Shown piece after piece: positions 2,451 to 16,731 of a stretch of DNA of 45,085 nt. This DNA comes from a virus. Taxonomy: Duplodnaviria > Heunggongvirae > Uroviricota > Caudoviricetes. The translations under genes and the position numbers were made by a program. The notes under the pieces were generated by a model. The model was not told where the DNA came from, made no database searches, and saw only the letters and a list, made by a program, of their open reading frames with translations. The stretch is from the IMG/VR virus record IMGVR_UViG_2718217859_000005; one strand, 5' to 3'. Position 1 is the stretch's first letter. Each line of letters begins with the position of its first letter.

Positions 2451-3278
2451 TTATTTAACCTGGATAAATGGTGTACTGGCGCCGCTGGTCATGTATTGCG
2501 GCAGTGTGCCGTTCCATTTATTGATGGCTTCCAGCTCCATAACACCGGGGTTCTGGCGCAGAGCTTCACCGCGTAAACGAATAGCATCGGCTTCAGCCTG
2601 GGCTTTTGTGCGAATCGCATCTGCCTGTCCGGCAGCTTCCGCGCGCAACATGTTGGCTTCCGCTTCGCGCTGTTTAACTTCCTGCTCGCGCTGCAGTGTT
2701 TTCTGGTTCGCCGTGACTTTGGCATTAATGCTGTCGAGAACGGTTGGCGGATACTCCGGCTTACCCACATATGAGAGGCTCATTACCTGAATACCGATGG
2801 GCGTCATTTCTTCCTGAATGTCTTTAAGAGCAGCATCCAGCAGCTCAGACTTGCCGCCGTCGATAAATTTGTCGGTGGTCATTTTGCTGGCCAGTCGGTT
2901 AAGTGCGTCGGCGATCTTCTGACGCAGGTCGGTGTCGGTAATGTCATCCACGCCTTTGCGGTAGGTCTGAAACACCGTGGTAACTTTGGATGGATCAACT
3001 TTGTAGGCCACGCCAATGTGATAGCCGATGGTTGTACCGTCACTCATCTGGAAACTGAACGGTTCATCGTAGGTCTTCATTTGCTTGAAGGTGGGGAAGA
3101 TGTAAACTTCAGTATTCCAGCCAGTCCAGTAGCGACCAACACCGACCACCTCACCGACGCCTTTGTCGTCGCCCAGTTTATTTACCTTGATGCCAACATT
3201 ACCTGGTTCAACGCGATCGCAACCGACAAGGCCAATAGTCGGCAGAACAATGGCTAAAGCAAAAATAATTTTTTTCAT
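2451..3278 (-). CDS. SPFH/band-7 (stomatin/prohibitin/HflK-C-like) family lipoprotein
   Basis: 275 aa. N-terminal signal peptide with lipobox (..PTIGLVGC), then a body with SPFH-like features and a C-terminal Ala/Glu/Arg-rich coiled coil (QREQEVKQREAEANMLRAEAAGQADAIRTKAQAEADAIRLRGEA). AAGGA RBS; ATGA stop/start overlap with the upstream small gene. Confidence 0.75.
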   Translation of the reverse strand: MKKIIFALAIVLPTIGLVGCDRVEPGNVGIKVNKLGDDKGVGEVVGVGRYWTGWNTEVYIFPTFKQMKTYDEPFSFQMSDGTTIGYHIGVAYKVDPSKVTTVFQTYRKGVDDITDTDLRQKIADALNRLASKMTTDKFIDGGKSELLDAALKDIQEEMTPIGIQVMSLSYVGKPEYPPTVLDSINAKVTANQKTLQREQEVKQREAEANMLRAEAAGQADAIRTKAQAEADAIRLRGEALRQNPGVMELEAINKWNGTLPQYMTSGASTPFIQVK

Positions 3279-3463
3279 CTTTTATCCTTAGTGAAAGAAA
3301 GACCCTTGTAAATGGCATAAATGCAGGGCGGGGTCAGAAACGCCAGTGCAAAGCCAGAAATAACTGCTATCGTATCCTTCATGGATATAAGGAACGGAAC
3401 AAGTAATCCGTAAATACATGCGATAATTGCCAGTAAAATTACTATTGTGAAATACAGTCTCAT
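3275..3463 (-). CDS. Small hydrophobic membrane protein (62 aa, two predicted TM segments)
   Basis: Track ORF MRLYFTIVILLAIIACIYGLLVPFLISMKDTIAVISGFALAFLTPPCIYAIYKGLSFTKDKR; translationally coupled (ATGA) to the SPFH gene. Confidence 0.5.
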   Translation of the reverse strand: MRLYFTIVILLAIIACIYGLLVPFLISMKDTIAVISGFALAFLTPPCIYAIYKGLSFTKDKR

Positions 3464-3486: not shown

Positions 3487-3594
3487 TTAACCGACTGACA
3501 GCACAATAAAGAGAATAATGATTTCAGTTAGTGTCAGTACTGTGGCAAGGATTAAAATCAGTTTTACTCTGTTTAATTCACGGTTGCTTTTCAT
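3487..3594 (-). CDS. Tiny hydrophobic peptide (35 aa, one predicted TM segment)
   Basis: ORF found by eye (MKSNRELNRVKLILILATVLTLTEIIILFIVLSVG); no strong RBS. First position of the SPFH operon. Confidence 0.3.
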   Translation of the reverse strand: MKSNRELNRVKLILILATVLTLTEIIILFIVLSVG

Positions 3595-3639
3595 ACAAAC
3601 GGTTAGTAAAAAACGGAAGAATTATATTCTTCTTAATAT

Positions 3640-4221
3640 TTAATGTGTCACTGGCGCTTCTGGCATACTATGAGTATTCAGGTCGTTAATCATTTCATCC
3701 AGAAGGAGTTCAAGCCCTTCGCGCCCCATAGCAGAGACAATGAAACCATTATCAGGATCTGCGATGAGCATTTTTTGATAGAGAAACAGAACTCGCCCCA
3801 TGCCTTCAGCTTCGCCATATTTTTCAATAAATCCCCATTCGACATGGTTTTGCAGGGCAATGCGAAGTGGTCCGGGGTAGATACTCAGGCAACCATGTTT
3901 CCCCTTGTAAATAACTGCGCGATCTGTAGTTCCATTATCGTTAGGGATATCAACAGTGCCGTTCTTGTCTTCCTCTTCATTTATAAATGTCGTCACATAC
4001 AGCCATCGCCACTGAGCAACCTTCATATCGACTGAAAATCGTCCCAGCAACCCTGCATCATCGGCTTCAGCAATACATTGCATGATTCTTAAACCGTGTG
4101 AGTTTGGATAATCGTATTCACCATCATTAAGTCGCTGTACGGCATCAACAAAATCAATGGTTGTATTGCCAATTTTTATGCCATGTGGCGTAACTTCTGG
4201 TCGGAACTCTGAATGATTCAT
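3640..4221 (-). CDS. Hypothetical protein (193 aa), unknown function
   Basis: Internal ATG of track ORF 3640..4296 with an AGGAG RBS (MNHSEFRPEV...); ATGA overlap with the upstream 62-aa gene. Confidence 0.55.
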   Translation of the reverse strand: MNHSEFRPEVTPHGIKIGNTTIDFVDAVQRLNDGEYDYPNSHGLRIMQCIAEADDAGLLGRFSVDMKVAQWRWLYVTTFINEEEDKNGTVDIPNDNGTTDRAVIYKGKHGCLSIYPGPLRIALQNHVEWGFIEKYGEAEGMGRVLFLYQKMLIADPDNGFIVSAMGREGLELLLDEMINDLNTHSMPEAPVTH

Positions 4222-4406
4222 AATGTTTGCTCCTTTGCTGGTGGAATAATCGTGTAGCCAGCTCTTTTTGCCATCCACAGAAATGTATCCATGCAACCAA
4301 CGAATTCATTATCCAACAGATGTTTTGAGTAAATTACTTCACCATTTTCAATGGTTAGCAACACTCTTACTTTTTTATGTGTTATGTTTTGTTGTTTTTC
4401 TTCCAT
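4218..4406 (-). CDS. Hypothetical small protein (62 aa)
   Basis: Track ORF 4218..4421 trimmed to the ATG at 4406 (MEEKQQN...), which has a GGGAG RBS; coupled to the downstream 193-aa gene. Confidence 0.45.
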   Translation of the reverse strand: MEEKQQNITHKKVRVLLTIENGEVIYSKHLLDNEFVGCMDTFLWMAKRAGYTIIPPAKEQTL

Positions 4407-4410
4407 TGAC

Positions 4411-4524
4411 TTATCTCCCATATGCTTTGCGCAAATACAGGCTGGCTATATGAAGATAAGAATCTCCATGTTGTGCAATGAGGCAGGCAGTTTTATACGA
4501 TGCCTTATGTTTCAGGAAAGTCAT
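4411..4524 (-). CDS. Hypothetical small protein (37 aa)
   Basis: ORF found by eye: ATG at 4524 with an AGGAG RBS 9 nt upstream; stop overlaps the RBS region of the next gene. Confidence 0.25.
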   Translation of the reverse strand: MTFLKHKASYKTACLIAQHGDSYLHIASLYLRKAYGR

Positions 4525-4602
4525 AACATAATCTCCTGCGAATAAAGGTTGCAACAATCCCCGGCGATAAAACCGTAATAAACATTCAGGGAATATTTAT
4601 TG

Positions 4603-4968
4603 TTATTGCGCTAATTCTTTTTCGGCAGCAGATTTTGCATATTCACATGCAAAATTCAGAATTTCGCTGCCAAGTGTTTTTGTTTCGTGATTACTGGACA
4701 TATGTAATACCTGTGTTGCATGCAATAAATGATAAACATTTACCGCAAATGAGTCCGGCTCCAGACAAATGCCTTCATAATCATCTTGTTGTGAGGTTGT
4801 TTCTGTCATTGCTCCTGAAGTGCATGCGAGTCTGTTTTTGACAATTCTCTTTCCTCTAATCACTATATCGGCAACATCTATTGCCTTTACAACCTCCGGG
4901 AGAAGTTCCGGGTTTGTATAATCAAAGTCATCAACATGGAGAACGGTTATGTTTTCGAACTTTTTCAT
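4603..4968 (-). CDS. Hypothetical protein (121 aa) whose C-terminal half is paralogous to the N-terminal domain of the upstream HTH protein
   Basis: ATG at 4968 overlaps the TGA of the upstream gene (ATGA) and has an AGGAG RBS. Its C-terminal segment (ICLEPDSFAVNVYHLLHATQVLH...LGSEILNFACEYAKSAA) aligns by eye with the N-terminus of the 153-aa protein (LEGLELDSFALNIANLLSAVRTFH...LGIEVMEFIHEYALSAA). Confidence 0.55.
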   Translation of the reverse strand: MKKFENITVLHVDDFDYTNPELLPEVVKAIDVADIVIRGKRIVKNRLACTSGAMTETTSQQDDYEGICLEPDSFAVNVYHLLHATQVLHMSSNHETKTLGSEILNFACEYAKSAAEKELAQ

Positions 4969-5426
4969 GCGCAAGTATCTCCTGCTGTTGGTTTACCGGT
5001 TAACAGCCACATCGGGTCGCAACCAAGGACATTTGCCAGCGGGATAAGCATACTGATAGTTGGTTCATAGTCTCCGCTCTCCCACTGAATGATGATTTCT
5101 TCATCGAGATCGAGCAGCCTGGCGAGTTCGGCGGTTGTTAAGCCGCAGGCTTCGCGTTGGGTGCGAAGGTTAACCAGCCAGCCTTTAGGGAAGGATTGTT
5201 TTTGTTGTGCAGGAGAAGCCGCAGATAGAGCATATTCATGGATAAATTCCATTACCTCAATGCCCAGTTCCTTTGAGCGAGCACAATCCAGAAGATGGAA
5301 TGTGCGTACAGCACTTAGCAAATTTGCAATATTTAATGCAAAGGAATCAAGTTCTAAGCCTTCAAGCGTAACACAGCCGCAGTTGATAAAATTAGTTGTT
5401 TCTGGAGTTGCTTTTAGTGTCTTCAT
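4965..5426 (-). CDS. Two-domain protein: unknown N-terminal domain plus C-terminal XRE-family helix-turn-helix
   Basis: 153 aa; C-terminal segment LRTQREACGLTTAELARLLDLDEEIIIQWESGDYEPTISMLIPLANVLGCDPMWLL matches the XRE/Cro-CI HTH pattern. First gene of a cassette with its own promoter. Confidence 0.7.
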   Translation of the reverse strand: MKTLKATPETTNFINCGCVTLEGLELDSFALNIANLLSAVRTFHLLDCARSKELGIEVMEFIHEYALSAASPAQQKQSFPKGWLVNLRTQREACGLTTAELARLLDLDEEIIIQWESGDYEPTISMLIPLANVLGCDPMWLLTGKPTAGDTCA

Positions 5427-5479
5427 ATACCCACCAACAATTTTAAATTGAATTTAATCAAGTTATAATTGATGGTGCG

Positions 5480-5508
5480 ATATTATGCTTTGAGAAATAG
5501 GCTGTCAA
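5480..5508 (-). promoter_or_regulatory. Near-consensus sigma70 promoter (TTGACA-17 nt-TAATAT) driving the 4965..5426 cassette
   Basis: On the minus strand, -35 TTGACA at 5508-5503 and -10 TAATAT at 5485-5480 with a 17-nt spacer; about 50 nt upstream of the ATG at 5426 and downstream of the cI terminator. Confidence 0.55.
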
Positions 5509-5535
5509 GAAAAAATTGATATCGTGTGTTTTAGG

Positions 5536-5560
5536 CAGAAAAAAACGGGCAAAGCCCGTT
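5536..5560 (-). terminator. Rho-independent terminator downstream of cI
   Basis: Hairpin AACGGGC-AAA-GCCCGTT followed on the minus strand by a 7-8 T run, 12 nt after the cI stop. Confidence 0.55.
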
Positions 5561-5571
5561 AAAATCAAAGA

Positions 5572-6261
5572 CTAACCAAATCTGTTTATATTGAATGGTA
5601 CTGATGAGATCACTTTAGACTGGATATAAAGCAGAGCTAACCCCTCTTTTTCGATGCTCCATGGTTGATAATTGGGGTTATCAGATAACACCATGATTTT
5701 GCTTCCAATTTTTTGAAGTCTTTTCACGTAGCATTCTCCATCAAAACAAAATGCATAAATGCCATCGCCATCAAAATAAGTTACTGTCTTATCAAGAAAA
5801 AGAAGGTCGCCAGGTGAGATTGTGGGAGCCATACTGTCTCCTCTGGCGTTACCTATTTCTATATTTTTGAATGCCCGATTTCCAACAAGGCGTCGGGCAT
5901 ATTCAGGATCAAGTTCTATTGAGCGCACTACATCTATCAAGTCACCACGGACATGAGTTCCATCACCGCAACTAAACTCAACATCAAGGACATTAAACAC
6001 GACGCTATCTGTTCTTGTCTGGTGTTTCTCTTGCGAGGAAAAGGTTGGTGAGGAGTCTTCACCTAAGAACCAGGATTGTGGATAACCGCTAATCTCGGAT
6101 AAATGCGCGAGCTTATCACTCCGTGGAAATGTTTTTCCTGTTGTCCAGTACTGCACTGATTGCGCACTCACACCTAACTTGCGGGCCAGTTGAGCCTGAG
6201 TCCATCCTTTTGCTTTCAGCATCGCGGCTATTCGATTTTCCGTGTTTTTGACGTTCTTCAT
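5572..6261 (-). CDS. cI: CI-type prophage repressor (N-terminal XRE HTH plus C-terminal S24/LexA-like autopeptidase domain)
   Basis: N-terminal HTH (LKAKGWTQAQLARKLGVSAQSVQYW); C-terminal S24 motifs (GDSMAPT with Ser nucleophile, and ..YVKRL.. with Lys). ATG at 6261 has an AGGA RBS; the track start at 6267 is a TTG. Confidence 0.9.
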   Translation of the reverse strand: MKNVKNTENRIAAMLKAKGWTQAQLARKLGVSAQSVQYWTTGKTFPRSDKLAHLSEISGYPQSWFLGEDSSPTFSSQEKHQTRTDSVVFNVLDVEFSCGDGTHVRGDLIDVVRSIELDPEYARRLVGNRAFKNIEIGNARGDSMAPTISPGDLLFLDKTVTYFDGDGIYAFCFDGECYVKRLQKIGSKIMVLSDNPNYQPWSIEKEGLALLYIQSKVISSVPFNINRFG

Positions 6262-6394
6262 GACCAAATCCTGTGGGTTTCTTTACAAGGATAAATCTTT
6301 ACTTGATTTTAGTGTATTCGATCCTTTTGCAACTTGCATGTTAATTTAAACTTGATGTATTTTTGATTTATAAAGTTAATATTGGTGCTTTGTT
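6262..6394. promoter_or_regulatory. Divergent immunity control region (putative PRM/PR and operators)
   Basis: 133-bp AT-rich spacer between divergent cI and cro-like genes. Contains repeated ACTTGAT/TTGAT(T)T motifs (near 6301, 6351, 6364), an AAGGAT/ATCCTT inverted repeat, and a candidate rightward promoter (TTGATG..TAATAT near 6352-6378). Confidence 0.4.
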
Positions 6395-6694
6395 ATGAAA
6401 GGAAATGATTACGACAAACTTCGTGCATTAATTGCGCAAAATGCCATAGCGCGAAATCTTGGTGTGACGCCGCAAGCGGTGAATCAGTGGTTTTCAAAAA
6501 ACACAATTCCTGCTCGTTTCGTTTTACGCGTATGTGAAGTAGTTGCATGGAAGGTCACGCCACATGGCTTAAGGCCAGATCTTTATCCTCACCCTGAAGA
6601 TGGAATTCCTGATTCGTTACGCAAAATTTCAAATCCAAGCCTAGCGCGCACGGAAGATGGGCAGAGTGATTCATCAGAAATGTCCACGCGATGA
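6395..6694 (+). CDS. Cro-like HTH regulator
   Basis: 99-aa ORF divergent from cI, first gene of the rightward operon; HTH-like segment IARNLGVTPQAVNQWFSKNTIP. Confidence 0.65.
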   Translation: MKGNDYDKLRALIAQNAIARNLGVTPQAVNQWFSKNTIPARFVLRVCEVVAWKVTPHGLRPDLYPHPEDGIPDSLRKISNPSLARTEDGQSDSSEMSTR

Positions 6695-6770
6695 ACGGTT
6701 ACTGAACGAAAAAAGAAAAGCCGGGCCGCACTCCGTCAGCCCGACTTATTCTGATTAGTAAGGGGATTTC

Positions 6771-7625
6771 ATGATGATCAATAAACAAAAATTAGTCAAC
6801 CCTGAAAACTTGCCAGTTATTGAGTGGCAGGGAGTACGTGTAGTTACCACCGAAACGTTGGCGGCGGGATATGGAACAACGCCAATCCGTATACAACAGA
6901 ACTACATTCGAAACGAAGATCGTTTCGTTGAGGGTAAACACTTTTTCAAAATCAGCGGTGATGAGCTGAAATCTTTCCGACTATCTTTTAGCGAGTCGGT
7001 TAATAAACATACAACATCACTTGTCCTCTGGACAGAACGCGGCGCTGCCCGCATGTCAAAAATCGTCGATACAGACGAGGCCTGGTTGTTCTTCGAAAAA
7101 ATGGAGCAGGCGTATTTTCGTAAAGCAACGCCTTCTTCAAACACTATTCCAGACTTTGACGATCCGATCGCTGCTGCTGAAGCGTGGATTGAAGCCAAAA
7201 AATCCGAACGCCTTGCTCTCGGGTATGCAGAGCGTCAGGCTCGCTACATCAGCAAACTCGAAAGCCATCTCGCCGATGGCATCACTCCTGTGCAGTTCTG
7301 CAAACAGCTCAACGGTGTAAACACTCGTCAGATTAATGCGTTCCTTGAAGAGCGTAACTGGCTGTATGACGACCGTCCGGAGGCTATGTATCCGCGCTGG
7401 CGTGTAAAAGCGTATGCACGTGACCAATACCTGACTGAGCGTTCTGGGCAGGTTGAGCAGGAAAACGGGGAAATGCGCGAGATTTTCAAACCACTCCTGA
7501 AGAAAAAAGGTGCCGCCTGGTTATATCGCCATTATCTGAACGGCGAACTACCTATGAAGAAAACATGGGATGGGCAATTTACCCATAACACTGAGCTCGC
7601 GAATCTTTTACAGGAGAGCAAATGA
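6771..7625 (+). CDS. Phage antirepressor-like protein (KilA-N/ORF6N-type N-terminus, KilAC-type C-terminus)
   Basis: 284 aa; AAGGGGA RBS. Domain organisation typical of prophage Ant proteins as recalled; occupies the cII position. Confidence 0.65.
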   Translation: MMINKQKLVNPENLPVIEWQGVRVVTTETLAAGYGTTPIRIQQNYIRNEDRFVEGKHFFKISGDELKSFRLSFSESVNKHTTSLVLWTERGAARMSKIVDTDEAWLFFEKMEQAYFRKATPSSNTIPDFDDPIAAAEAWIEAKKSERLALGYAERQARYISKLESHLADGITPVQFCKQLNGVNTRQINAFLEERNWLYDDRPEAMYPRWRVKAYARDQYLTERSGQVEQENGEMREIFKPLLKKKGAAWLYRHYLNGELPMKKTWDGQFTHNTELANLLQESK

Positions 7626-7834
7626 TGCAAACCAAGACATGTGTAACTGGTGATGTCGATCTGAAACCTTGCCCGTTCTGCGGAAATCCGGAAGTACAAC
7701 TCATTGAGGTGAAATATTTTCTGGATGGCGATGATGGTTATTACGTCGCATGTACTTGCTGTAACGCAAACCAGATTCCTGATTCGAAAGAACGTGCTGT
7801 TCATGACTGGAACCAGCGCGAAAACGCGGATTGA
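7622..7834 (+). CDS. Lar-family restriction-alleviation protein (zinc ribbon)
   Basis: 70 aa with CPFCG...(17 aa)...CTCC, matching the Lar/RalR-type restriction alleviation fold as recalled; CAGGAGAG RBS. Confidence 0.65.
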   Translation: MMQTKTCVTGDVDLKPCPFCGNPEVQLIEVKYFLDGDDGYYVACTCCNANQIPDSKERAVHDWNQRENAD

Positions 7835-8148
7835 CGGCGAGTAGGTACAAAATGATCCGCAACCAACATATTGATTCTGCAATTTCGGGACGTTACACTG
7901 TTCCTGCACCTTATAAAGCGGGTGCCGGGGGTCGCAGCCCGGAATTGCATACGGCGATATATGACGCGCCTGCGTCTTTTTTATCGTCCGCGCTCACGCA
8001 CGCCAGAATTATGGTGGGCTGGGCAGGGGAGCCGAAAGGCTCGCCGGTTTCCGTATGCGCCGGTACTGCGAACCCTGTTCAGTTCACCACCCATGAGTTT
8101 CGCAGCTCCGGTGGTGGAAGTTATCCATTGCATACGGAGGCTGCCATC

Positions 8149-10754: not shown

Positions 10755-12142
10755 CCACTCCAGTATGGCGTAACGATGATCTGGAAGGCGCTGTCATTGG
10801 CGCGTTTTTTCTGCGTGGGGCAGATCATGAAGTGATGGATATTCTGGCCACACTGCCAGCGGACGTTTTTTCTGTACGAGCGTATAGGGATATCTACACA
10901 GGCATCTGCCGACAGGCTCGTGTTTCAGGTGTGATTGATCCTGTGCTGCTGTGTAATGAAATGCCGGAACTTGCTCCGGTGATTACTGATACCGGGCGTA
11001 AAAGCTGGGTGAAGTCGTCACTGGAGCACTATGTTGCAGCGTTGCGTCGCAATGCCGCACTGCGTGATGCAGAAAAGACGCTGAATGAGGCGTTGCAGAA
11101 ATTACGTGATGCGCATACCTGTGAAGCAGCTGAAGATGCCCTGAAGGATGCGCAGAACATGATGGCCTCATTGTCGATGGAAAAAGGCGCAATTCAGCCG
11201 GTACATATTGATGATGTGCTTCCGGAAGTGGTTGACCGTGTTGAATGCCGGAATCAGGGGCTGGAGAAATCCAGGACGTTGATGACCGGTATTGATGAAC
11301 TGGACGCAAAAACAGGCGGCATGGAGCCCGGCGACCTGGTATTTATTGCGGCTCGTCCGTCAATGGGCAAAACCGAACTGGCGCTGGATATCATCGACAA
11401 AGTGACTGAACAGGGGCGCGGTGTTCTTCTGTTCACAATGGAAATGGCGAACATTCAGATCGGTGAACGCATGGTGTCTGCTGCCGGAGGAATGCCTGTA
11501 TCGCGCCTGAAATCTGTCTCTCACTTTGGTGACGAAGACTGGGCGCGTTTCATTAAGGGTGTGGAGCTGATGACCGGACGCAATATCTGGATGGTGGACC
11601 AGGCGAACCTGACCATTGACGAGATATGCGTAACAACGAAACACCATTTGATTAAACATCCGGAAACGGCACTGGTGGTGGTTGATTATCTCGGGCTGAT
11701 AAAAACCCGAACCACGGGGCGTCATGACCTTGCCGTGGGTGAAATCTCAAAGGGGCTTAAAGGCCTGGCAAAATCCGGCGGATTACCGGTGGTTGCGCTG
11801 AGCCAGCTTTCCCGTGGTGTGGAGTCCAGGCCCAATAAACGCCCTATGAACTCAGACCTGAAAAACTCCGGAGAAATAGAGGCGGATGCAGACATCATTC
11901 TGATGCTTTACAGGGATGAAGTGTACAACCCGGATACGCAGGCCAGAGGCATTGCAGAAATCAATATCACGAAACAACGTAACGGTTCTCTGGGGACGAT
12001 TTACCGACGTTTTTATAACGGACATTTTCTGCCTGTAGACCAGGAAAGCGCGCAGGTTCTTTCCACATCAATGCAGCCGTCCAGACCGCGCAGATACAGT
12101 AACAAACGAACCGACAGTAGTAAGATGGAGCGTTTCTTTTGA
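10751..12142 (+). CDS. DnaB-like replicative helicase
   Basis: 463 aa; RecA-like C-terminal domain with Walker A ARPSMGKT and DnaB-like motifs (VVVDYLGLI, LSQLSRGVE). Confidence 0.8.
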   Translation: MTTPVWRNDDLEGAVIGAFFLRGADHEVMDILATLPADVFSVRAYRDIYTGICRQARVSGVIDPVLLCNEMPELAPVITDTGRKSWVKSSLEHYVAALRRNAALRDAEKTLNEALQKLRDAHTCEAAEDALKDAQNMMASLSMEKGAIQPVHIDDVLPEVVDRVECRNQGLEKSRTLMTGIDELDAKTGGMEPGDLVFIAARPSMGKTELALDIIDKVTEQGRGVLLFTMEMANIQIGERMVSAAGGMPVSRLKSVSHFGDEDWARFIKGVELMTGRNIWMVDQANLTIDEICVTTKHHLIKHPETALVVVDYLGLIKTRTTGRHDLAVGEISKGLKGLAKSGGLPVVALSQLSRGVESRPNKRPMNSDLKNSGEIEADADIILMLYRDEVYNPDTQARGIAEINITKQRNGSLGTIYRRFYNGHFLPVDQESAQVLSTSMQPSRPRRYSNKRTDSSKMERFF

Positions 12143-12153
12143 ACAACCAGACA

Positions 12154-12396
12154 ATGACTTTTACCCCTGAACAATTACGCAAACAGGCGCAGGAAATGCT
12201 GCGACAGGCGGAACAACTGGAAAAATCAGGCGTAACAAAAGATGCCATTCGTCGGGATATGGTACCCGCGCTCAGAGAACTGATGCAGGCAAAACACCGC
12301 GCACAAAAAGCAGTGGATGAGCTGGTGGATTGTGTGGCAGAGCTGGAAACCAAAGTTGGAAAGTTTGAAAAACTAGTGCAGGAGGTACTGCGCTGA
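12154..12396 (+). CDS. Hypothetical coiled-coil protein
   Basis: Track ORF 12139..12396; the first ATG is at 12154 and a TTG at 12139 has a GGAG RBS. Highly charged helical sequence. Confidence 0.35.
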
Positions 12397-12761
12397 TGCG
12401 TGATATTCAGATGGTTCTTGAGCGTTGGGGGGCGTGGGTGGCAAATAACCACGAAGATGTTACCTGGTCGTCGATTGCTGCGGGATTCAAAGGACTGATT
12501 CCGTCAAAGGTTAAGTCACGTCCGCAATGTTGTGACGATGACGCGATGATCATTTGTGGTTGCATGGCTCGTCTGAAAAAGAACAACCGTGACTTGCATG
12601 ATCTGCTCGTGGATTATTACGTTGGGGGAATGACTTTTATGGCGCTTGCAAGGAAACATGGACGTTCAGATTGCTGGGTTGGTCGTTTGTTGCAAAAAGC
12701 AGAGGGGATCGTGGCTGGTATGTTAATGATGTTGGATGTCAAACTAGAGATGGAATATTAA
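12396..12761 (+). CDS. Q: Late-gene antiterminator Q-like protein (small Phage_antitermQ type)
   Basis: 121 aa with a Cys cluster ([12 protein letters not shown]); last gene of the early-right operon immediately before the late region; resembles the small Q proteins of E. coli cryptic lambdoid prophages as recalled. Confidence 0.6.
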
Positions 12762-12928
12762 TTTAATTCTCATAGAATTCTTTTCTTTATGAGGGGCGAA
12801 TAATGCCCCTAAACTAGAATATTATAGCTGCCTCATTATCTGGGCAGCATTAGGTTGTTGAGTGGTTTTCGCTATTAAAGCAATCATTCAAAAGGTATAA
12901 AATATGAAGCTGGGTTCTATATTAACGC

Positions 12929-14116
12929 TTACTCCATGCTAAGTGAATCCTGATAGCGCTTAAATGCCTCCGCGAAAGCTAGAGCAGCATCAGCATTTGA
13001 TACCATGTATTCTTCTGTAATGCCTGTTTGGGACTGGAAATATAACTTTCCATAAATGCAAATTGGGATTTGATAGTTATCTTTAAATCGTCGGTCTGGT
13101 GAGCCATCTTTATTTGTTTTTGCCCATGTATGCCCAGCTATGCTGGCATCACTCGGAACACCATCCTCTTCATGGAACCCTTGATGCTGCGCATTAATTT
13201 GTAATTCCCGTAAGTCAATCAGAGCAAATGCCCCATCGGGGCGAGGAATTACAGCAATACCCGGATAAAGCAATATATCGTCGCCATTGACATTTTCAAA
13301 TCGCATTGCTCTTCCAGTAAAACGAATTAGATCTGTTGAAGCGAAATCAAATACGACTGGATGACGATCAACTGCTCGTGTAGCTAACGTCCTTTCTGCA
13401 AACTGATCTATAGCTTTATCTGCGGTAATATCCCATTTTTTGATACTTGATTTTAAAATATCGAAAGCACGAATCATTGCTGCATAAGCCCGCTGTGAGG
13501 AATCGCTGGTTTCGAAATTAATGACGATTTTAGTGTTATCTTCCCAGGATACAAGACGAGATACTTCTGCTTGTATTTGTGGTAGCGTTGCTTCAAGTTC
13601 TGCAATGCGACGTTTATAAAACCATCGAAACAGGCTTGATTTACGTCGAGCCAATTCACTCTTTTGTCTTGATTCTTCTGCAAGAGCCTCTTGTAAGTCA
13701 GATGCTATTTCCGCTCTTTGTTCTCGTGCTTTAACGATCAAGTCTCGTAAAGGTAAAAGAGATGTACTTGTCAAGGCCTCTACTGAGGCACTGGAGATTT
13801 CATTCATGCCTGTTTGTGGCATGTACATTTTTGCGTTTGATGGGGTGTTGTCTGAAATTAACTCGGGTGCATCAATATGAGATTCTACAGACGACGGATT
13901 TAGCTGAATGGTTGTGGATGGTTTGTCTTTGTATGGTAAACGAGGGGATGTATACGATAAACCAGATCCTGGTAACCCTAGAGTTGCTTTAATTCCTTTT
14001 TGGTTAACATTAACTGTGGCTCCGGGGACACCAAAACTTGCGCTTACCCCATGTTTACCGATGTTAAGGCGTACTCCGGGGAAAATGGTAAAAGTTTGTC
14101 TGAAGCGAAGAGACAT
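12929..14116 (-). CDS. DUF4236-like N-terminal domain protein with central coiled coil and unknown C-terminal domain
   Basis: 395 aa; AGGGA RBS. N-terminus MSLRFRQTFTIFPGVRLNIGKHGVSASFGVPGATVNVNQKGIKATLGLPGSGLSY matches the DUF4236 pattern as I remember it; central segment is charged and helical. Convergent with Q. Confidence 0.7.
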   Translation of the reverse strand: MSLRFRQTFTIFPGVRLNIGKHGVSASFGVPGATVNVNQKGIKATLGLPGSGLSYTSPRLPYKDKPSTTIQLNPSSVESHIDAPELISDNTPSNAKMYMPQTGMNEISSASVEALTSTSLLPLRDLIVKAREQRAEIASDLQEALAEESRQKSELARRKSSLFRWFYKRRIAELEATLPQIQAEVSRLVSWEDNTKIVINFETSDSSQRAYAAMIRAFDILKSSIKKWDITADKAIDQFAERTLATRAVDRHPVVFDFASTDLIRFTGRAMRFENVNGDDILLYPGIAVIPRPDGAFALIDLRELQINAQHQGFHEEDGVPSDASIAGHTWAKTNKDGSPDRRFKDNYQIPICIYGKLYFQSQTGITEEYMVSNADAALAFAEAFKRYQDSLSME

Positions 14117-14146
14117 AAGATAATCCCTGTGTAGTAATGTCTAAAG

Positions 14147-14169
14147 TTACATTCCATACTGGAATGTAA
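14147..14169. promoter_or_regulatory. Perfect 9-bp inverted repeat (TTACATTCC-5 nt-GGAATGTAA) in the promoter/5-prime region of the DUF4236-like gene
   Basis: Seen directly, 31-53 nt upstream of the ATG at 14116, within the AT-rich divergent intergenic region 14117-14454. Confidence 0.45.
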
Positions 14170-14454
14170 TACTGCGATGAGACACGAGGCTCATTAAGGA
14201 TTTTTGCATTTTGCTGACATAAATTCTATAAAAATTATGGTGATAAACGTTTTACAATCGTAAAAAAACAAATATGCTGTTAAGAGTGGTACTACGCCAC
14301 ACAGCTTAAACCTGCCGTCGAGCGGTTTTTTTGTACCTGTAAACCTAGTGCAGTACAGTAAACTCGCTGGTGGTTGTGAATACTGACTTTTTATCTTGCT
14401 GGCTTTTTAGACAAGAGTTATTGGTATGTCATGTTAACCAGAAGGGAAAAAGAC

Positions 14455-14652
14455 ATGCTAAAACAGCAGGATATGACCGAAACCGCCAGAGTGGTGTTTA
14501 ATGAATTAAGCGTCACCGAACCGGCGACCGTCGGGGAAATTGCGCAGAATACTTACCTTTCACGCGAACGCTGCCAGTTAATACTGACTCAGCTTGTTAT
14601 GGCGGGTCTGGCAGATTATCAGTTCGGTTGTTACAGACGTCTTCCGCAGTGA
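14455..14652 (+). CDS. Small winged-helix regulator, PapI/FaeA-like
   Basis: ATG at 14455 with an AAGGGA RBS (track ORF starts at 14431). About 66 aa; pattern ...ATVGEIAQNTYLSRERCQLILTQLVMAGL... resembles PapI-family regulators. Confidence 0.45.
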   Translation: MLKQQDMTETARVVFNELSVTEPATVGEIAQNTYLSRERCQLILTQLVMAGLADYQFGCYRRLPQ

Positions 14653-14788
14653 AGGCTTTTTAATTCGTGGTAATGGGCGGCTGGTGGGTGTTAGCGGCAC
14701 CTGTCAGTCATTTGCTTATGTGTTGATGAGAATTTACTTTTTGGGGCTATAATTAAGCTAACCAATTGCTAATTAAAGTAAAATTATA

Positions 14789-15502
14789 ATGGATGTTGTC
14801 TGTTCAGTTATCATGGTTTGCTCCCCAATTAATATTTTTCTTGAAAAGGATACGTTGTCACTTAAGCCCGGCTCAGTCGTTCTGGCCACCAAATGCATCA
14901 GGGAGCTTTTCCTTATGCATTATGGCAAAGTAAAAATTGTCGATATAAGCCATTCTATAGTAAGTCAATATCTGGAAAGCCAGCATAAGCTGACAAGAGG
15001 TCCTCTGACTGACATTCCACTTTACTTGTTGCTGGACCCCAACAATCCTGCGCTGGCTGCAGCTTTAATTACCAGCCAGAGATTTTCCGGAGAGACCACG
15101 GATATGTTTCTTATGATGGCCTGCCTGTCGCTGTTTGAATCAGATGAACGGATGTCATTATTTTTAAGTGGATGTGTATCCAGTATAAGTGTCAAAGTCA
15201 GAGCGATTATTCAAACAGATATATCATCAAGCTGGACGCTTGGTGCGATTGCTCTACAGTTGCATATGAGTGAGAGCTTGTTAAAGAAAAAACTCAAGGA
15301 TGAAGGTCTCAGGTTCAGTAATTTGTTACTTGAGGAACGGATGCGGGTTGCTGTAAATATGTTATGTTCCCGACATGGATATGGACAGGCTGTAGCAGAA
15401 AAATGCGGTTATTCAAGTAGGTCCTACTTTATCTCTGTATTTCACCGCTATTATGGCTTCCCGCCAGACAGATATGTATCTATGCAAGGGCTTGATTTTT
15501 GA
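14789..15502 (+). CDS. AraC-family transcriptional regulator (Rns/AggR-like size and layout)
   Basis: C-terminal AraC-type double HTH (LGAIALQLHMSESLLKKKLKDEG... and ...VAEKCGYSSRSYFISVFHRYYGFPPDRY); AT-rich gene; true start may be an internal Met. Confidence 0.75.
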   Translation: MDVVCSVIMVCSPINIFLEKDTLSLKPGSVVLATKCIRELFLMHYGKVKIVDISHSIVSQYLESQHKLTRGPLTDIPLYLLLDPNNPALAAALITSQRFSGETTDMFLMMACLSLFESDERMSLFLSGCVSSISVKVRAIIQTDISSSWTLGAIALQLHMSESLLKKKLKDEGLRFSNLLLEERMRVAVNMLCSRHGYGQAVAEKCGYSSRSYFISVFHRYYGFPPDRYVSMQGLDF

Positions 15503-15528
15503 TTTCATCTGATTATTATTTTCGGCCC

Positions 15529-15604
15529 GGCCCTTTAGCTCAGTGGTGAGAGCGAGCGACTCATAATCGCCAGGTCGCTGGTTCAAATCCAGCAAGGGCC
15601 ACCA
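15529..15604 (+). tRNA. tRNA with CAU anticodon (Ile2/lysidine-type or Met), ileX-like
   Basis: 76 nt; 7-bp acceptor stem GGCCCTT/AAGGGCC, anticodon loop CTCATAA, T-loop TTCAAAT, encoded CCA. Closely resembles E. coli ileX as recalled. Confidence 0.85.
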
Positions 15605-15605
15605 A

Positions 15606-15682
15606 CCGCCACTAGCTCATCAGGAAAGAGAGTCAACCCTTTAAGTTGAGAGTGCGAGGTTCGAGTCTCCGGTGGCGGTCCA
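15606..15682 (+). tRNA. Degenerate tRNA-like element (possible pseudo-tRNA; anticodon-loop CCTTTAA)
   Basis: Perfect acceptor stem (CCGCCAC/GTGGCGG) and anticodon stem (TCAAC/GTTGA), but a mismatch in the D-stem and in the T-stem, and C instead of U at position 33. Confidence 0.4.
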
Positions 15683-15684
15683 GT

Positions 15685-15760
<76 letters not shown>

Positions 15761-15763
15761 TAT

Positions 15764-15838
<75 letters not shown>

Positions 15839-16106
15839 GCAGAGGACGATACTAGGTTGTTTTTGGGCACTGACACTTTATGTGGGGCGTTTTTACCTGA
15901 CTCCTTACCGCGTCCTGTTCTGTAATGAATGCTATTTATTACGGTACCAGTGCTATTTTTTTACAATAGTGGAATGGTGCATTACCGGTGGAGATTTTGT
16001 ATTTCCTGGCAGGGTCGGTGATGCATCATTCCGATGTTGTAAGCATCGCTCAGAATAACGTTGAGATTAATCGCGTACTAAGCAAAACCTGGAAATACAT
16101 CCTTAA

Positions 16107-16130
16107 CCGCCGCACCAGGCGGTTTTTTTT
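16107..16130 (+). terminator. Rho-independent terminator
   Basis: Hairpin CCGCC-GCACCA-GGCGG followed by an 8-T run. Confidence 0.55.
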
Positions 16131-16305
16131 ATTCATTTTTTTCATGGCTCGCTACGGCGGGCCTTTTTCATATCCGCGCCACGCCCGGCGCACATCAAAA
16201 ACCACAGAGCCTTTCAGGGGTGAGCTTACGGGATGGTCAGTGTGACTTTCTCTGTGGGCTGGTCACCCCCGGGCGGAGGCTCACCCACTAAAAGGAAAAG
16301 TCACG

Positions 16306-16731
16306 ATGTTTGGTATTTTCAAAAAGAAAACCCGCAAGGCCATTACCGAAGTGAAGAAGATGGAGAACCGCGACGCAGTGGAGGCGACCGTCTGGGGTGC
16401 GTATTCCATTGCATATGCTGACGGCACCTGTGACGCGAAAGAAATCGCGGTACTGGAGAAAACCATTGCAGCACTTCCTGCCTTTGCGCCGTTCTCGGGT
16501 GAGATTGCACAAATGAGTGCAAATATCCGCGCCCGTTATGAAGCATCGCCGCGTTCTGCCAATGCCGAAGCCCTCCGCCAGCTGGCTGATATTGCAGGTA
16601 CTGATGACGCAGTTAATGTGCTGTGCCTGTGTCTGGATATCGCTGACCAGGATGGTATTGGTCCGGATGAAGAAGCACAGCTCAAGAAAATTGCTCAGGC
16701 GCTGCAGCTACCACTGGAGCAGTACCTGTGA
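16306..16731 (+). CDS. TerB-like domain protein
   Basis: 141 aa; AAGGA RBS. All-helical pattern aligning by eye with TerB (VEATVWGAYSIAYADGTCDAKEIAVLEK...; ...VLCLCLDIADQDGIGPDEEAQLKKIAQAL). Confidence 0.65.
   Translation: MFGIFKKKTRKAITEVKKMENRDAVEATVWGAYSIAYADGTCDAKEIAVLEKTIAALPAFAPFSGEIAQMSANIRARYEASPRSANAEALRQLADIAGTDDAVNVLCLCLDIADQDGIGPDEEAQLKKIAQALQLPLEQYL

Follow-up and report, generated by a model that had tools for sequence, protein, structure and literature searches.

We analysed a 45,085-nt stretch of viral DNA (IMG/VR virus record IMGVR_UViG_2718217859_000005, Caudoviricetes), here called the window, in which all coordinates are given, and within it a two-gene cassette transcribed leftward from beside the cI repressor gene. 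The window is a lambdoid, phiP27-like prophage inserted beside yecN/cmoA, and its cassette region is 100% identical to that of the Escherichia coli 08-00022 prophage; annotation of the same prophage was taken from RefSeq record NZ_CP013662. Going leftward from the switch, one meets cro, then cI behind an intergenic region of 133 bp, followed by a terminator, a promoter, an open reading frame (ORF) of 153 amino acids (aa) and an ORF of 121 aa (Table 1). The 153-aa protein combines an N-terminal helical hairpin, which we call X, with a C-terminal helix-turn-helix (HTH) domain of the XRE type, and the 121-aa protein, its partner, ends in a free-standing hairpin that is a paralog of X. For comparison we retrieved 125 related loci, annotated phages included; some counts below cover 123 or 77 of them. 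Gene order and control sequences strongly indicate that the cassette is the head of the early-left operon of the prophage, at the "N position", and the block of DNA that is exchanged with the immunity type ends within the first gene of this operon.

As the initial annotation had stated, a near-consensus sigma-70 promoter, TTGACA-17-TAATAT, is present directly after the cI terminator on the minus strand. It matches the hexamers at 10 of 12 positions and is the best-scoring site between positions 3400 and 6800. Promoter-like sites as a class are not enriched in this interval (8 found, 8.2 expected), so the case for the promoter rests on its context and its conservation in the related loci rather than on the scan score. 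Two copies of a palindrome of 15-16 bp, TCAAG-N5-ATTGA, bracket the promoter. The slightly relaxed motif TCAAG-N5-ATTNA, which was defined post hoc from these same sites, occurs four times in 45 kb against an expectation of 0.56: at the two bracketing sites and at two sites between cI and cro, the place of the right operators (OR).

Comparison of the 125 loci shows that the sequence between cI and the regulator gene is entirely different for each of the 6-7 cI types, while the HTH of the regulator remains >90% identical. Since the HTH is unchanged when the palindromes change, these sites cannot serve the 153-aa protein as operators. The layout of promoter and operators is preserved within one cI cluster. 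Exact sharing of 8/9-mers between the left-operator (OL)-like region and OR proved too noisy and was replaced by a comparison of 15-mers allowing mismatches; in six of the seven immunity types, the OL-like region has more near-identical 15-mers in common with the cognate OR than with the OR of any other type, and in types 2-4 type-specific palindromes are present in both. The promoter is very probably an early-left promoter of the PL/OL type under cI control. Because it is bracketed by OR-like operators, cI should keep it off in the lysogen; we infer such repression from the operator sequences, and the cassette would then be silent in the lysogen and fire only after infection or induction.

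In lambda, rexAB lies between cI and OL/PL, and N is the gene downstream of the operator-controlled early-left promoter. In each of the 125 loci, the leftward operon opens with a member of the regulator family described here. The initial annotation had placed the cassette at the rex position, with an autonomous promoter active in the lysogen. Both parts of this claim are contradicted: the cassette lies downstream of an operator-controlled promoter, where lambda has N, and the promoter is flanked and overlapped by OR-like palindromes in a region that is replaced whenever the cI type changes.

The limits of the immunity block were obtained by blastn comparison with five heteroimmune relatives. 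Nucleotide identity is 95-99.7% from the left up to window positions 5167-5176, which correspond to codon ~86 of the 153-aa gene and to the junction of X and the HTH. From this breakpoint to position 7867 there is no homology to the heteroimmune relatives, and similarity resumes at 7868, in the ash gene. Judged from these alignments, the edge of the immunity block falls within a gene and coincides exactly with a domain junction, a domain-level mosaicism that is new. A table of cI clusters against X clusters for the 125 loci is strictly diagonal, with seven types. Within one cI cluster, the C-terminal domain of cI is 98-99% identical and its N-terminal domain 78-86%, compared with 50-61% for X, so that X diverges faster than its neighbours. 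Apart from the partner, no ORF of the window resembles X, those of cI and Cro included. The perfect association of cI and X may reflect an immunity-specific function of X.

The 153-aa protein matches the Pfam family HTH_3 (PF01381) at residues 87-141 with 43.6 bits (cut-off 23; E=3.1e-11), which bears out the XRE-type HTH of the initial annotation. Its N-terminal ~85 residues have no Pfam match, neither cassette protein has a Pfam match outside the HTH families at E<=0.1, and the PADLOC matches of the 153-aa protein are to generic HTH models only. The AlphaFold2 (AF2) model of this protein contains a hairpin of helices 26-45 and 49-69, with a predicted local distance difference test score (pLDDT) of ~82, followed by a five-helix HTH. 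In a Foldseek search the HTH model superposes on P22 c2, 434 Cro, CapH and SinR N-terminal domains, with target-normalised template modelling (TM) scores of 0.85-0.91 and root mean square deviations of 1-2 Å. The profile match above the curated cut-off and the 434/P22-c2-like five-helix fold both place the domain in the XRE/HTH_3 family.

Most relatives of the 153-aa protein are ~230 aa long and consist of X, a first HTH (HTH1), a linker and a second HTH (HTH2). The window form has one HTH, and its C-terminal tail, DPMWLLTGKPTAGDTCA, is the HTH2 tail of the two-HTH relatives; the one-HTH form looks like a deletion between the two HTH repeats. This form is common, the exact window sequence being present on 404 contigs. 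Throughout the family the HTH is nearly invariant, whereas the N-terminal hairpin falls into nine or more sequence types. Among PHROG families the best match is phrog_4836 (E=2.3e-77), whose label 'CII-like regulator' is an unproven annotation, and for all copies the annotation goes no further than "helix-turn-helix protein" or "hypothetical".

The start codon of the partner gene overlaps the stop codon of the regulator gene in an ATGA, so the translational coupling described initially is present, and ATGA or near-ATGA coupling recurs in most architectures of the related loci. In the AF2 model of the partner, a beta-alpha-beta-beta unit at the N-terminus (pLDDT ~75) is followed by a disordered linker and then by a hairpin (71-89/94-120, pLDDT ~90). 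Neither the hairpin nor the N-terminal extension has a specific significant structural match, and the 121-aa protein has no match in Pfam or PADLOC and one at chance level only in NCBIfam. A reading of the extension as a degenerate second HTH was rejected, the blastn similarity lying at the ribosome-binding site/ATGA junction only.

The partner exists both as a 121-aa form and as a hairpin-only form of 66-68 aa, and annotations conflict: the gene is given as 121 aa in phiP27 (L08) and PhiR49_2, and as 68 aa starting at Met54 (M54) in PGAP records, including that of the same prophage. The sequence AGGAG lies just 2 nt upstream of the M54 start and 9-10 nt upstream of the 121-aa start. The N-terminal 50 codons have a ratio of nonsynonymous to synonymous polymorphism (pN/pS) of 0.69 compared with 0.62-0.63 in out-of-frame controls, which indicates no frame-specific constraint; the 68-aa core has a pN/pS of 0.27, which indicates purifying selection. 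The long ORF nevertheless appears to be translated, given that among the relatives there is a compensated frameshift (P0128), an in-frame deletion (P0131), a loss of the internal ATG (M54) in P0123, P0133 and P0137, and a fusion of the same N-terminal extension to a c-type hairpin (P0148).

The partner hairpin belongs to the type that we call a. The a-type hairpin family is small: an exhaustive profile search returned 19 cluster representatives among 1.84 billion, all of them small stand-alone proteins or the regulators described here, save two long repetitive proteins that are probably spurious. No informative distant relatives appeared in this search. Regulator and partner proteins were recovered from Escherichia, Shigella and Salmonella.

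Residues 24-70 of the 153-aa protein and 69-115 of the 121-aa protein are identical at 22 of 47 positions (47%; BLASTP, E=3e-11), with exactly the residue pattern that the initial annotation had picked out. When every ORF in the six frames of the window is searched, this match (E~2.5e-9) stands alone, and profile-profile comparison with hhalign gives a probability of 97.9% for X and the partner hairpin. Across the family, profile comparison shows that hairpin types a, b and c are detectably interrelated, that d, g and i form a second group and that h stands alone. Three independent types (a, c and h) occur both fused to an HTH and free-standing; free and fused versions are 34-53% identical, and the duplications are therefore old.

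Of 123 loci, 118 carry a free hairpin gene of type a, irrespective of the hairpin type of the regulator: 53/55 loci with an a-type regulator, 38/40 with d, 10/10 with h, 8/9 with c and 5/5 with b. Other small ORFs take or share the coupled slot, namely an 80-aa ORF (C7) and two ORFs of 63 aa (C13 and C14); the two 63-aa proteins are paralogous to regulator hairpins of types c and h. Judged by these counts, the free hairpin is a conserved core gene, and regulator and anti-regulator do not, as a rule, form a strictly matched pair. The regulator/anti-regulator architecture suggested in the initial annotation survives in part: the homologous domain, the XRE protein and the known logic of SinR/SinI and AimC/AimX speak for it, but the hairpin type of the partner does not follow that of the regulator.

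In phiP27 (NC_003356; locus L002, ~4908-5150, minus strand) and 20 other loci, an unannotated 80-aa ORF, whose product begins MKNCDAYHICLIGELLD, is ATGA-coupled to the regulator L10. In phiP27 it sits in an insertion of ~580 bp between L10 and L08, and the record annotates L09 on the opposite strand further along. At locus L078 (IMG/VR contig 2541047688_000007), which is among the few loci lacking an a-type hairpin gene, a transposase pair resembling the IS3 family replaces the partner directly after the regulator.

We propose the following role for the cassette. The first operon product is a modular DNA-binding protein made of a hairpin, X, that differs between immunity types, and a nearly invariant 434/P22-c2-like XRE HTH, and the second is a small protein with a conserved a-type hairpin core, made by translational coupling. 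The hairpins are very hydrophobic and may serve as oligomerisation modules that form four-helix bundles, and the regulator would bind a conserved site on DNA that lies beyond the immunity region. In phages of this immunity type, in which the free hairpin is a paralog of X, the small protein could form mixed bundles with the regulator and so damp or delay its activity. The module would act in the early lysis/lysogeny programme, not as an exclusion or toxin system expressed in the lysogen. We give this composite of a cI-repressed early operon leader, an oligomerising regulator and titration by a small protein a probability of roughly 0.45; the titration step by itself, which is modelled on SinR/SinI, we consider doubtful.

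Several observations weigh against this proposal. Oligomerisation of the hairpins and formation of heteromers are conjectural, the AF2 models of the two proteins being single-chain models of moderate confidence (mean pLDDT ~70, predicted TM score ~0.43). No 10-12-mer is common to the seven immunity regions that could be the target of the conserved HTH, and the conserved downstream intergenic regions, including positions ~4545-4575, contain no convincing palindrome. The strict association of cI and X may equally be mere physical linkage (hitch-hiking) to OL, which is <100 bp away; there is no conserved DNA between OL and X, which makes this explanation possible. The type of the partner does not co-vary with the hairpin type of the regulator, as tested on 77 and then on 123 loci, and in more than half of the loci the a-type partner occurs with a non-homologous regulator hairpin. 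Regulator hairpins of types d and h are not detectably homologous to type a, and because the a-type partner is found with them, its retention cannot depend on a matched contact between hairpins. Titration may be irrelevant, or limited to a-type phages.

It is possible, if somewhat unlikely, that the regulator and the partner do not interact at all. Their paralogy would then be a fossil of domain shuffling, the free a-type hairpin would be an independent, conserved early protein, and X would be an oligomerisation hairpin that happened to arrive with the immunity block. The independence of partner type and X type in the 123 loci fits this explanation, as do the age of the duplications and the interchangeability of C7, C13 and C14 in the coupled position. 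It does not account for the tight coupling of a small hairpin gene to the regulator, which is kept across architectures, or for the three hairpin types that are both fused and free, which would be unexpected without a functional link. A bolder version of an interaction, which we rate as a long shot, makes X the immunity-specific working part of the early regulator, with type-specific contacts to itself or to the cognate cI/Cro. The free a, c and h hairpins would then be anti-regulators like SinI or AimX that act across co-resident prophages in polylysogenic E. coli strains that produce Shiga toxin (STEC); such action is conceivable because the free hairpins assort independently of immunity. 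If true, this would add a protein-level layer of immunity or cross-talk to repressor-operator specificity in Shiga toxin (Stx) and P27-like phages.

The cassette might also be a functional analogue of lambda CII and CIII, the HTH protein activating promoters for the establishment of lysogeny and the small helical protein shielding it from proteolysis. CIII is a small, helical protein, and so is the partner; the genes are in an early operon, no annotated gene of the prophage is named N, cII or cIII, and the best PHROG label of the regulator points the same way. That label is unproven, however, and the Pfam matches at E<=0.1 are to generic HTH models with nothing resembling CII or CIII. A target resembling the lambda establishment promoter PRE would moreover lie in the immunity region, where no motif is common to the seven types although the HTH is invariant, and we regard the analogy as improbable. 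A locus for anti-defence or competition between phages is quite improbable. Its fast-evolving small early inhibitors or decoys would be accompanied by an HTH protein acting like an anti-CRISPR-associated (Aca) regulator, and free hairpins would sabotage the regulators of co-resident prophages. The faster evolution of X compared with the adjacent cI (50-61% against 86-99% identity within one cI cluster) would suit such a locus, as would the interchangeable small genes in the slot after the regulator, the presence of up to three copies per E. coli genome and the early expression expected from a strong promoter. Yet there is no avoidance of 'self', since a-type phages keep an a-type free hairpin as often as others do; the conserved HTH is not matched by a conserved autoregulatory site, the promoter region varying with cI; and no known anti-defence homology was found, the PADLOC matches being generic HTH models only.

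The reading in the initial annotation, a constitutive moron expressed in the lysogen at the rex position and encoding an exclusion or toxin/antitoxin-like pair, was drawn from the near-consensus promoter directly after the cI terminator and from the coupling of an HTH protein to a small partner. The operators shared with OR that bracket the promoter, the co-variation of the promoter region with cI type, the position of the cassette downstream of the operators rather than between cI and the operators, and the place of the family at the head of the leftward operon in all 125 loci now make it very improbable. The proposed toxin/antitoxin or exclusion pair is likewise not supported, as Pfam, NCBIfam, PADLOC and PHROGs yielded no toxin, defence or exclusion signature.

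The family is present in 306 of 5426 complete E. coli genomes, with up to three copies per genome. It heads the early-left operon of P27-like lambdoid prophages, including Stx1a-, Stx2a- and Stx2d-converting STEC phages. Literature searches found no functional study of phiP27 L08/L10 or of the early-left HTH gene in Stx phages. No annotated gene of the prophage bears the name N, cII or cIII, which makes the leading gene of the early-left operon a strong candidate for a missing regulator of the lysis/lysogeny and induction programme. This programme governs toxin release, hence its clinical relevance in STEC. That the immunity block always brings its own hairpin while the HTH and the small partner stay constant suggests an undescribed immunity-specific protein function. 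The PL/OL assignment, for its part, corrects a tempting misreading of such cassettes as defence morons expressed in the lysogen. What is new here is the uncharacterised gene family, to which every source examined gives a generic name only, together with an immunity boundary at the level of domains and the occurrence of hairpins in both fused and free form; the control region reads as an ordinary lambdoid PL/OL, a kind already known.

Table 1. Features of the cassette and its surroundings (window coordinates).
Feature	Position	Strand	Remarks
cro	6395-6694	+	Across the 133-bp intergenic region from cI
OR operator-like site TCAAGTTTAAATTAA	6341-6355		cI-cro intergenic region
OR operator-like site TCAAGTAAAGATTTA	6292-6306		cI-cro intergenic region
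cI-type repressor, 229 aa	5572-6261	-	Pfam HTH_3 and Peptidase_S24; annotated as XRE family regulator
Intrinsic terminator 3' of cI	5536-5560 (stem 5544-5560, then T-run)	-	Kept in all loci with the same cI type
Operator-like palindrome TCAAGAAAAAATTGA	5505-5519		Overlaps the -35 hexamer; motif as at the two cI-cro intergenic sites
Sigma-70 promoter TTGACA-17-TAATAT, read as early-left (PL-type)	5508..5480	-	Hexamers kept in subtypes a, a' and a''
Operator-like palindrome TCAAGTTATAATTGA	5458-5472		Start of the transcript, about +1 to +15
Possible weaker third operator CAATTTTAAATTGA	5438-5451		Putative; inverted-repeat partner of 5505-5518
153-aa ORF (regulator)	4965-5426	-	First gene after the promoter
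153-aa gene, 5' part: leader and helical hairpin X (residues 1-86)	5169-5426	-	Within the immunity substitution block
153-aa gene, 3' part: conserved XRE HTH, 434/P22-c2 type	4965-5168	-	C-terminal tail corresponds to that of HTH2 in the ~230-aa relatives
121-aa ORF (partner)	4603-4968	-	Start overlaps the stop of the 153-aa ORF (ATGA)
121-aa ORF, N-terminal extension	4810-4968	-	Predicted small beta-alpha-beta-beta unit and disordered linker
a-type free helical hairpin, 68 aa from M54	4603-4809	-	Paralog of X; conserved core of the partner gene
37-aa ORF MTFLKHKASYKTACLIAQHGDSYLHIASLYLRKAYGR	4411-4524	-	Next gene of the operon; AGGAG ribosome-binding site
67-aa gene (phrog_340) and 193-218-aa gene (phrog_1515)	3640-4421	-	Next in the operon; PHROG families without assigned function
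Immunity substitution block: X-coding part, PL/OL, cI, OR, cro, ORF6N gene, Lar	5169-7867		blastn breakpoints against five heteroimmune loci

Downstream of the cassette, a non-coding block, TTACGGYTTWATCGCCGGGGATTRT (window ~4545-4575, minus strand), lies between the partner stop codon and the 37-aa ORF. In divergent loci its conservation exceeds that of the wobble positions in the coding sequence on either side, and it shows no clear palindrome or hairpin. The 37-aa ORF is absent from the RefSeq annotation and exists as two DNA alleles that differ at many positions and encode similar peptides. After the 193-aa gene there is an AT-rich hairpin with a T6 run (3608-3634), which the terminator scan did not call. 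It is followed by an unannotated hydrophobic ORF of 35 aa, MKSNRELNRVKLILILATVLTLTEIIILFIVLSVG (3487-3594, minus strand), a 62-aa membrane protein (3275-3463, minus strand; phrog_1130, 'moron') and a lipoprotein with an SPFH domain (2451-3278, minus strand). These three could be a separate cluster of membrane-protein morons.

On the other side of the switch, between cro and the ORF6N gene, a G+C-rich hairpin at 6718-6747 scores as a minus-strand terminator (11 pairs, then a T-run), and a weak promoter-like site on the minus strand lies just upstream of it (6799..6771). The hairpin might terminate transcription in both directions behind cro, or it might belong to an antisense unit. The region downstream of the Q antiterminator (window ~12,000-16,500; NZ_CP013662 2,216,000-2,221,200; L087 28,500-33,700), where Stx phages carry stx, has no stx genes in this prophage. 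Besides three tRNA genes (Ile, Thr and Gly), it encodes a protein of the TerB family, a DUF3927 protein, an anti-adapter resembling IraM and an HTH protein of 237 aa.

Among known systems, the control region is closest to lambda PL/OL and to the imm434 and imm21 substitutions: the promoter follows the repressor gene directly, operators of the OR family overlap it, and the block is exchanged as a unit between heteroimmune phages. Both the overlapping OR-family operators and the co-variation with the repressor allele place the region in this class. The immunity block of imm21 likewise takes in N, the first gene under PL. The locus differs in that its first gene encodes an HTH protein, not an N-type antiterminator, and in that the block boundary falls inside a gene, at a domain junction. 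With rexAB and sieB the cassette shares the general neighbourhood of cI and the leftward strand. rexAB is co-transcribed with cI in the lysogen, whereas the cassette lies downstream of an operator-controlled promoter, and there is no similarity to these genes in Pfam, PHROGs or PADLOC, nor are there membrane or toxin features.

Resemblance to other pairs of an HTH protein and a small protein is slighter. The 121-aa protein contains no toxin recognisable by Pfam, PADLOC, NCBIfam or structure, and the promoter varies with cI while the HTH is invariant, which does not agree with the autoregulation of type II toxin-antitoxin systems. Nor does the locus resemble an anti-CRISPR (Acr)-Aca operon in its autoregulation, the sequence upstream of the gene being completely different among loci with the same HTH. 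Membership in the lambda CII/CIII families is not indicated either, there being no Pfam match to CII or CIII and no motif common to the immunity regions. In Stx phages, an atypical 'Clade VIII CI' with two HTH_3 domains and no S24 peptidase has been described near the regulatory region (Fagerlund et al. 2022, PMC8951638). Its two-HTH architecture is that of the ~230-aa relatives in Stx1 and Stx2 phages, although the loci examined here also carry a normal S24 cI upstream; the two may be the same protein.

The closest parallels to the proposed role are two regulator/anti-regulator pairs. SinI is a small paralog of the helical domain of SinR that forms a heteromer with SinR and blocks its binding to DNA (PMC3163267). 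Like SinR/SinI, the cassette has an XRE HTH joined to a helical domain and a separate small paralog protein, both predicted here to be helical hairpins. Unlike SinR/SinI and SlrR/SlrA, it has the hairpin at the N-terminus and the HTH at the C-terminus. It also lacks a Pfam SinI-domain match (E<=0.1), most members of its family carry two tandem HTH domains, and its partner does not co-vary with the regulator hairpin. AimX is a small helical phage protein that binds the oligomerisation domain of the XRE-type repressor AimC and prevents operator binding (bioRxiv 10.1101/2025.11.23.689978). The temperate phage setting and the small helical protein beside an XRE-type regulator are the same here, where the binding is a proposal only. 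AimC/AimX, however, belongs to Bacillus phages, is under peptide-signalling control and targets the main repressor, whereas in the present prophage that role falls to a separate cI of the LexA-like kind, and the HTH protein is made from the early operon. Thus, the cassette is not a member of the SinR/SinI or AimC/AimX families but resembles both in its logic.

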